Shown here: positions 58,801 through 61,800 of the stretch, piece after piece
Numbering within the stretch: position 1 is the stretch's first letter
Layout: each line of letters opens with the position of its first letter
From: Lingula anatina
Taxonomy: Eukaryota > Animalia > Brachiopoda
NCBI GenBank assembly: GCA_051362555.1
Contig: CM120645.1
Span: 13,206,001-13,270,000, forward strand
Direction: 5' to 3'
DNA length: 64,000 nucleotides
Made by a program: the position numbers and the translations under genes
The notes under the pieces: model-generated
Seen by the model: only the letters and a program-made list of their open reading frames with translations
Databases searched by the model: none
Told to the model about the DNA's origin: nothing

Positions 58801-61800
58801 AAGCTAACAGTGCGAGAATATTTCAGCTTGTGTTTGATAATTATCATATATGTGCAATTCATATCTTGAGTTTCAAATGAACATGGCCAACATTTTAATA
58901 TTACCATTATTATAACAATAGTCATGTATATTATGATTAAACAGATAGAAGATATCAGCAAGCCTCCAGCCACCACGTCGTTCTCCATTCACCACTTCAA
59001 CATATCTCAGAACCGCCTGGGCTCCATCCCTGACTGGATCAGTGATAACATGCCAGGACTGACAGAACTGGATATCAAGGGGTAGGTACAGTGATAACAT
59101 GCCAGGACTGACAGAACTGGATATCAAGGGGTAGGTACAGGGATAACATGCCAGGGCTTACACAACTGGATATCAAGGAGTAGGTACAGGGATATCAAGG
59201 GTAGGTACAGGGATATCAAGGGGTAGGTACAGGGATGTCAAGGGGTAGGTATAAGGATATCAAGGGGTAGGTACAGGGATATCAAGGGATAGGTAAAGGG
59301 ATAACATGCCAGGGCTAACACAACTGGATAGCAAGGGGTAGGTACCGGGATATCAAGGGGTAGGTACGGGGATAACATGCCAGGACTGACAGAACTGGAT
59401 ATCAAGGGATAGGTACAGGGATAACATGCCAGGGCTTACACAACTGGATATCAAGGAGTAGGTACAGGGATATCAAGGGTAGGTACAGGGATATCAAGGG
59501 GTAGGTACAGGGATGTCAAGGGGTAGGTATAAGGATATCAAGGGGTAGGTACAGGGATATCAAGGGGTAGGTACAGGGATAACATGCCAGGGCTAACACA
59601 ACTGGATATCAAGAGGTAGGTACCGGGATATCAAGGGGTAGGTACGGGGATAACATGCTAGGGCTGACACAACTGGATATCAAGGGGCAGGTACAGGGAT
59701 AACATCCCACGGCTCACACAACTGGATACCAAGGGGTAAGTACAGTGATAACATTCCTGGGCTGAAACAGCTGGATATCAAGGGGTAGGTACAGGGATGT
59801 CAAGGGGTAGGTACAGTGACAACATGCCTGGCCCGACTGACACAGCGGGATAACAAGGGGTAGGTACAGGGATGTCAAGGGGTAGGTGTAAGGATATCAA
59901 GGGGTAGGTACAGGGATATCAAGAGGTAGGTACAGTGATATCGTGCCAGGGCTGACACAACTGGAAATTAAAGGGTAGGTATAGGGATGTCAAGGGGTAG
60001 GTATAGGGAATGCATGCCAGGGCTAACACAACTGGATATAAAGGGGTAGGTACAAGGATATCAAGGGGTAGGTTCAGGGATGTCAAGGGGTAGGTACAAG
60101 GATATCAGAGGGTAGGTACAGGGATGTCAAGGGGTAGGTACAGGGATATCAAGGGGTAGGTACAGGGATGTTAAGGGGTAGGTACAAGGATATCAAGGGG
60201 TAGGTACAAGGATGTCAAGGGGTAGGTACAGGGATGTTAAGGGGTAGGTACAGGGATGTTATGGGGTAGGTACAGGGATGTTAAGGGGTAGGTACAGGGA
60301 TGTTATGGGGTAGGTACAGGGGTATCAAGGGGTAGGTACAGGGGTATCAGGTAGGTGCATGGGTATCAAGGGGTTGATACAAGGATGGTTAATGGTAGGT
60401 GCAAGGATTATAATACAAGTAAAAAGATAAGCAGATAGTTAGCTGGTATGAAAGGAAATTTGTCCCAACTCTGAAATGTGACAGTTTGGATCATTGTGAC
60501 AGTAGCAAGATGTGACAAGTTTTTTAATAACAGTTGTTGGAGCAGTTGATAATTGTCATATTTCTTAACTATTGCCAATATTAAAGCTTGCTTAATAACA
60601 CTGCAAAATAATTACCCATATTATAGTTCTGTCTTGTATTGTGAATGTTCACAGAAACAAGATCACCAAGTTACCCGACCGTCCACTTCTGCTGAAGAAG
60701 CTGCACACATTAGACATAGCTCAGAATTACTTGACCGAGATACCAGAGCAATTCCTGGAGGAATTCAATGCACTGGAGAAATTAGATGCCTCCTGTAATG
60801 AACTTGGTGAGTCCTGCCTAGATGTGATTTCAGAGCGTTATTTTATTTAGTTTAAAATAAGTTGTATATATTCTGCTGCTAAAGATTGTTGCCTTTTTTG
60901 GAAGTTGGTTCAGTTTTGTTTGTGGATGGGGTAACATTAAGCCCTTGTAAGTTTCGCAATGAAAATGATTTTTAAAAAGTTTTTAAAATTTTGGGTTTAA
61001 CTTTTAGTATGCAGCATGCTTGTTTTAAATGGGTATATATAGAGCTTTCAGCCATATGAATCAGTGTCACTAACATGTTAACTTGTTAAAATATGTTTTA
61101 CTTTACACTTGTAATTTTTTCTTTATAGAAAAAGGTTTTCATATAATAGCATTTTTTTTTTCAGAAAAATTGCCCTCGCCCCAGGTGGCAAAAACCTTGC
61201 CAAAGCTTCAAACACTAAAGCTTAGTCGCAACAGACTGGGTCAGGAAGAGGCCCCCTATATCCCAAAGTTCATCCTACATCTAGAGAGGTTAGCAATTGA
61301 TTTTAAGTAACATATTTTCATCAGGTGTTGTTTAATATAAATTAAAGCAAGCTGCATTTACAAAAATGAATGTGTAATGAATCTAATGAAAGTTTTCTTT
61401 CTTTTTGTTGCATATCATGTGATATGTGTTGTTCATTTAATTGGAAAAAAAAATTTATTACAACGGACACTCATTGCACATGTTGGAATCAATGAATCTT
61501 AACATGTAAGCTCCCTCACCTCACATTTTGGCTTTTTGATGGTACCACTAGAGCTAATCGTGATAGTCCTAACAGTGATTTTTACCCTTGCTGGTACCAA
61601 TAGCAAAAAAAAAAAGAAAGGTATACACACTCCATTTATTGTGGGACAAATTAACCATTTGTAAAATAATTCCAGGCCAACACTGCAATATAGTCAGCTA
61701 TATTCAAATTCAGCAAGTCACGCTAATTCAGCCCAAGATTTTAAGACATTCTGTACAACAGCCCCTTTTAAAAACTTTTTCCTTCCTAGGTTGGAAAGCC

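Follow-up and report, generated by a model that had tools for sequence, protein, structure and literature searches.

Dozens of copied splice donors in an intron of an LRRK2-like gene of Lingula anatina

What does an intron do with dozens of copies of its own 5′ splice site? The question is raised by a 64,000-nt stretch of the genome of the brachiopod Lingula anatina (assembly GCA_051362555.1, contig CM120645.1; hereafter the window), in which sequence and TRF delimit a minisatellite at 59040-60404, in the intron after an LRR exon of an LRRK2-like gene. Each unit joins the last 39 or 12 nt of the exon to the first 10 nt of the intron and so spans the real exon-intron boundary. The initial annotation of this locus had proposed decoy donors that tune dosage, a reservoir of LRR micro-exons or intron gain in progress, with a neutral VNTR as a caveat; that caveat remains the best reading. 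We consider it probable that the array is a tandem repeat of exon-end and donor copies, likely born by slippage and likely neutral, and that productive mRNA likely comes from the first donor only.

Anatomy of the array and its host gene

The array and its surroundings comprise the following features, given in window coordinates with their strand.

58945..59081 (+): LRR-coding exon (exon 28 of the initial annotation), placed by an open frame over nine exons and by RNA ends
59043-59081 (+): last 39 nt of that LRR exon, unit 0 of the array
59082..59091 (+): authentic donor with the 10-nt spacer, ending in CAG
59092..59130 (+): unit 1, matching the present exon end exactly (59040-59091 shows no mismatch at an offset of 49)
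59082..60404 (+): minisatellite with 46 donor-like cores
59093..59658 (+): recent higher-order duplication, in tandem, of a 278-nt block (283/288 identical; TRF period 278)
60405..60654 (+): unique 3′ end of the intron, which contains the real acceptor (about two sense reads of RNA run X1 at 60420-60647)
60655..60806 (+): next LRR-coding exon (exon 29 of the initial annotation), placed by RNA and the open frame
52054..52165 (+): second duplication of an exon end plus donor in the same gene, two copies of 56 nt, the copy with GC at the donor

The count of about 45 cloned donors in 1.35 kb after the LRR exon was upheld: parsing gave 45 donor-like cores at 59082-60395, and one degenerate core at 60373, added by hand, brings them to 46. 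The TRF score of the array reaches 1338, far over threshold, and two core motifs occur nowhere else in the 64-kb window on either strand. Complete units number 45 (30 of 22 nt, 11 of 49 nt, two of 21 nt, and one each of 53 and 19 nt), and their cassettes, G/A-rich on the sense strand, divide into 12 long and 33 short. Long units are confined to the region 5′ of 60046, beyond which only short units are found. Whereas the 10-nt spacer had been described as near-constant between GT and AG, it is exact in 25 of 46 units and keeps its GT in 43, but has lost its closing AG in 14 (AG kept in 32/46, both in 29/46); splice signals are retained in many but not all copies. The 12 long cassettes, their peptides and the single frameshift among them (43 nt, 59817-59859) were confirmed. 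Both cassette lengths had been said to keep the frame, which is true of 42 of the 45 cassettes; two short ones of 11 nt (units at 59180 and 59458) break it as well, making three exceptions rather than one.

The intron spans 59082-60654, a length of 1,573 nt that falls to 250 nt once the array is removed. Read-through of the first donor meets an in-frame TAG at 59083-59085, as the initial annotation had noted; because this stop lies just after the first donor, any later donor used from the real exon carries it. The array itself was rejected as coding sequence, as all six frames contain stops and the longest open stretch is 65 codons. Canonical G-quadruplex motifs number 0 with loops of up to 7 nt and 12 with loops of up to 12 nt.

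Other repeats lie in the window. A perfect (CT)90 tract (58407-58586) directly follows the donor of the preceding exon, and near 43417 and 53766, too, donors are followed by long runs of GT or CT. One satellite of 145-146 nt forms three arrays (3302-4286, 38144-39026 and 40620-41906), each near a 9-nt GC-rich repeat (2379, 37358 and 39877); these are probably copies of one mobile element. Neighbouring genes contain long low-complexity open frames at 15752-17224 (−, 490 codons), 6590-7519 (+, 309) and 28817-29344 (+, 175).

The identity of the host, named as LRRK2 in the initial annotation, was examined through its exons. Nine of them (57694-63827) join in one open frame, and five downstream joints are GT-AG in RNA. 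An exon chain beginning at 43273 counts 21 exons up to the array-bearing one, with three further evident exons outside the chain. Two introns of the gene, at 49248 and 51515, appear to start with GC, judging from frame continuity and homology. Among solved structures the ROC exon finds its best matches in LRRK2, while matches of the LRR exon are not specific; the LRR is followed by a ROC most like that of LRRK2, and N-terminal exons match LRRK2-like proteins. A full-library protein search returned 45 matches. Of ten looked up, five are clusters named LRRK2-like (lancelet, scallop, hemichordate and starfish) and one more is from a clam; of the remaining four, three from an annelid and two bivalves are either unnamed or entered under a generic kinase name, and the last has no name. 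Twelve homologues aligned at 40-51% identity over the LRR-ROC stretch, and LRRK2-like proteins of Branchiostoma, Pecten, Glandiceps, Acanthaster, Owenia and Mya represent the same type of host gene. The ROC match and the homologue alignments support an LRRK2-like host. Its COR, kinase and WD40 domains would lie past the end of the window.

Origin and turnover of the repeat

Both unit types have ends at short matches. The 49-nt unit runs from an exonic CAG at 59040 to an intronic CAG at 59089, a microhomology, and the 22-nt unit equals a long unit minus the 27 nt between two GGATA words. With the unit types bounded by these CAG and GGATA matches, the keeping of the frame rests on two microhomology events, not 45. 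An in-frame cassette results from two of the six exonic CAG triplets, and frame would be kept by chance in both events about 1 time in 9.

We propose that a 49-nt duplication between CAG 59040 and CAG 59089 would first have copied 39 exon nt together with 10 intron nt, and that a 27-nt deletion between the GGATA words of a long unit would then have produced the 22-nt unit. Unequal exchange and slippage would have amplified both types, including the recent 278-nt block, and on at least one further occasion the exon end would have re-seeded the 5′ edge, leaving older units with former or segregating exon alleles.

This last step bears on the alleles carried by the units. Unit 1 is identical to the exon end as it now stands, and its copy by the 278-nt block is unit 10. 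The other long units carry G at the equivalent of 59058 and C at the equivalent of 59065, both of which are the alleles in 7/7 spliced exon reads of RNA run X9; array-marking alleles are found in those reads at 59058 (7/7), 59061 (3/7) and 59065 (7/7). Expressed as protein, Gln-type alleles are found in the X9 exon and commonly in the array, Glu-type alleles in the window exon and in units 1 and 10. We infer that the exon end probably re-seeded the 5′ edge of the array after the exon had changed, with unit 1 the youngest. Gene conversion into unit 10 was set aside, since the 278-nt duplication already derives that unit from unit 1.

Turnover resembles that of tandem repeats, with the 278-nt block nearly intact and a degenerate 3′ edge. 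Divergence of the 22-nt core increases in the 3′ direction (rho 0.36, P 0.013), with some rows inflated by indel misregister. A scan of 26 introns of the partial gene model revealed one other copied donor, at 52054-52165, and no copied acceptor. The exon end duplicated there belongs to the ankyrin region, and its copy reads GC instead of GT.

Donor use in RNA and the roles proposed for the array

Six of nine listed RNA runs were placed on the flanks of the array: X1, X4, X7 and X9 on 60420-63830, and X1, X2, X3 and X9 on 58600-59091. Runs X1-X3, of study P1, are poly(A) and stranded, and about 6 in 100 of their reads were used; in X4 the exons were uncovered. X7 and X9, of study P3, carry the same species label and, unlike X1, show many fixed exon-site differences over 60655-63827, which suggests that the P3 animals represent a divergent population or a cryptic species. 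Two repeats drew partial reads. An interspersed intronic repeat at 61933-62101, probably a short mobile element, collected hundreds on both strands in 4/4 runs, and a 35-nt intronic stretch at 58652-58686 collected 59-114 per P1 run, which all lie on the opposite strand and have constant foreign flanks; the latter is probably a piece of a repeat that an abundant transcript also contains.

The start of the array-bearing exon at 58945 is joined to the previous exon by three reads in X2 and five in X9. In X9, 7/7 reads pass from 59081 to the next exon with an agreement of 0.99, and depth fits all seven; the 95% upper bound for outcomes other than the first donor is 35%. In the next exon, of 152 nt, X9 departs from the window at 10 listed fixed sites; it also yields no array reads, and may therefore lack the array. 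In X1-X3 the first-donor junction is not among the loose ends listed, and the drop in depth past 59081 is consistent with about 2, 3 and 3 spliced reads, figures of depth arithmetic that other partitions fit too.

Reads of X1-X3 nevertheless enter the array. Depth over 59042-59075 climbs from 2.2, 4.8 and 2.6 to 5, 11 and 12, and joints reach back 49 nt in 1, 6 and 1 reads and 22 nt in 3, 2 and 2, with four more in X3. All array-structured reads lie on the sense strand and keep the 10-nt spacer, which identifies them as unspliced array RNA; such reads are present in 3/3 P1 runs, with 1-3 starts per joint. From these reads the array depth works out at 0.17, 0.17 and 0.48 times that of the exon in X1, X2 and X3. 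In the unique intron tail X1 contributes about two further reads, compared with none in 15 bins of five downstream introns; the emptiness of these control introns has P of about 0.005 if the arrays are as long as the window's and 0.27 if they are four times longer. Taken together, a handful of molecules hint at partial retention of the array intron in P1 animals.

If productive splicing uses the first donor, as in the neutral reading, exon definition or 5′-to-3′ donor scanning of the kind shown for human F7 would account for the choice. Transcripts from later donors would include the TAG at 59083 and would be degraded, and slower removal of the array intron may be a passive side effect. A more far-reaching reading, which we regard as unlikely, is that the strong donors would detain the intron in at least a fifth of poly(A) transcripts, with array length serving as a heritable LRRK2 dial in wild animals while the re-seeding exon end left an ordered record of its past alleles.

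A related reading, to which we give little credence, holds that many U1-binding donors would delay removal of the intron or pull splicing past the TAG, copy number thereby setting LRRK2 output. The donors are apt for this, in that 26 of 45 equal the authentic 11-mer and eight match a U1 consensus better, and both the unspliced sense reads in poly(A) RNA and the X1 reads in the intron tail point the same way, as do one-unit retention and length-dependent exon skipping reported for ABCA7 (PMC5954066). In vitro, the downstream of two strong donors was reportedly favoured (PMC3413131), which keeps the decoy reading alive. However, the independent molecules are few, and the array reads could stem from a longer allele or another locus, as X3 reads include a unit variant that the window lacks. 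Among the read ends listed for the flanks, where such joints would stay hidden, none links a downstream donor to 60655, and the F7 and lancelet arrays are described as splicing normally (PMC1557585; PMC3087553). Retention as a side effect would, moreover, differ from a selected function. We make no claim of donor-specific constraint: spacer positions 1-6 vary less than positions 7-10, but the parse favours intact donors.

The micro-exon reservoir fared worse. It would have the long cassettes spliced as optional in-frame exons at the internal CAG acceptors, adding variant LRR strands, and 9 of the 12 do have AG before, GT or GC after, a kept frame and no stop. The acceptors, which the initial annotation had itself described as lacking polypyrimidine tracts, speak against it: the 17 positions from -20 to -4 hold 4-6 pyrimidines and 5-7 G in each of 32 array acceptors, compared with 8-12 and 0-4 in nine real ones. 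Array acceptors are thus purine-rich, without overlap with the real acceptor context. The junction across exons 28 and 29, to which the initial annotation had pointed, was found from 59081 to the next exon in the seven X9 reads, but no joint back 39 or 12 nt, the sign of cassette splicing, was listed in four runs at a depth of 2-12; joints were listed from three reads at two starts, which gives low power. The reads that do enter the array retain the spacer. At the protein level, LRR repeats in the junction region measure 23-24 residues, so that a 13-residue insert amounts to about half a repeat, and it is absent at the junction in 11 of the 12 homologues, which have one repeat each, the twelfth being without the region. 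The six LRRK2-like proteins named above, compared at the protein level, likewise have no extra partial repeat there.

Signs of coding constraint were mild. Distinct alleles among the 12 long copies and the exon end comprise 10 synonymous and 16 non-synonymous changes, against an expected synonymous share of 0.22-0.29 (P 0.045, 0.11 and 0.20 at transition weights 1, 2 and 4), and third codon positions hold 15/29 alleles in the long copies (P 0.03). This pattern is a mild signal against pure neutrality, and coding constraint is not significant. Three of the array-marking alleles occur in spliced X9 exon reads and a fourth, at 59067, is common in X1-X3 reads; inheritance from a selected exon therefore explains part of the signal, and the former or segregating exon alleles kept by older units account for part of their protein-like look. 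We consider micro-exons very unlikely.

Equally improbable, in our judgement, is a reservoir at the level of DNA. In this scheme the exon end would recombine unequally with a long unit further along the array, so that the last 13 codons were replaced without loss of frame and protein variants resulted. Unit 0 is the exon end itself, and the X9 exon shares the Gln-type alleles common in the array while the window exon shares the Glu-type of units 1 and 10. Simple re-seeding by an exon that evolves accounts for this pattern as well, however, with unit 10 a 278-nt copy of unit 1, and there is no sign of selection for variety.

Least likely of all is the gain of an intron or exon by tandem duplication, in progress: the unit straddles the existing donor rather than an exonic AGGT, a 10-nt intron is too short to splice, the spacer is read unspliced and the reads placed on the flanks revealed no new junction.

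Related boundary repeats

The neutral tandem repeat that we favour fits a known kind, the exon-intron-spanning minisatellite, of which lancelet mirages, human F7 intron 7, ABCA7 and CBS are examples.

In F7 intron 7, the boundary lies within the first unit of a 37-bp VNTR. The pseudo-donors of this VNTR are functional, yet splicing normally uses the most upstream donor only (PMC1557585). An authentic donor followed by identical pseudo-donors, with a boundary-spanning first unit, is common to both arrays (PMC1557585, PMC6627357). F7, however, has 5-9 copies of one unit, compared with 46 cores and two unit lengths in the LRRK2-like array, where the spacer, unlike that of F7, ends in CAG and the cassettes look like phase-symmetric exons.

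Mirages in lancelet Adh3 and the globins BflGb6 and BflGb9 are tandem copies of exon-intron boundaries that are unstable in length, evolve in concert, reportedly leave splicing undisturbed and have been proposed as a route to intron gain (PMC3087553). The Lingula array resembles them as an invertebrate, minisatellite-like set of boundary copies in which many but not all units have splice signals (PMC3087553). It differs in its gene, probably in its lineage, and in the hint of partial retention in poly(A) RNA. Intron gain by duplication is a recognised mechanism that depends on an exonic AGGT serving as the new splice sites (PMC3443670); here, the copy straddles an existing donor and the spacer stays unspliced.

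A 25-bp VNTR starting at the donor of ABCA7 intron 18 shows one-unit retention and length-dependent exon skipping (PMC5954066, PMC13747324). It offers a model for a dosage effect, because its repeat likewise begins at the donor and use of a later donor leads to a premature stop. The effect of length on splicing has been measured for ABCA7, whereas an effect of copy number in the LRRK2-like array is hypothetical. The CBS VNTR is said to involve use of an alternative donor. It has a 31-bp unit and lies at exon 13-intron 13 (PMC1395315), resembling the Lingula array in sitting at an exon-intron boundary. A search by title and the start of the abstract found no paper on such an array in an invertebrate LRRK2, and PMC10078293 yielded nothing specific.

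The Lingula array provides a natural test of how the spliceosome chooses the first among many identical donors, outside the known cases of chordates and with unusually many copies. If the retention is true, the array would amount to a naturally occurring splicing brake of variable length within an LRRK2 gene. It would then also test whether donor arrays cost splicing efficiency, a cost that the F7 and lancelet work says does not arise.
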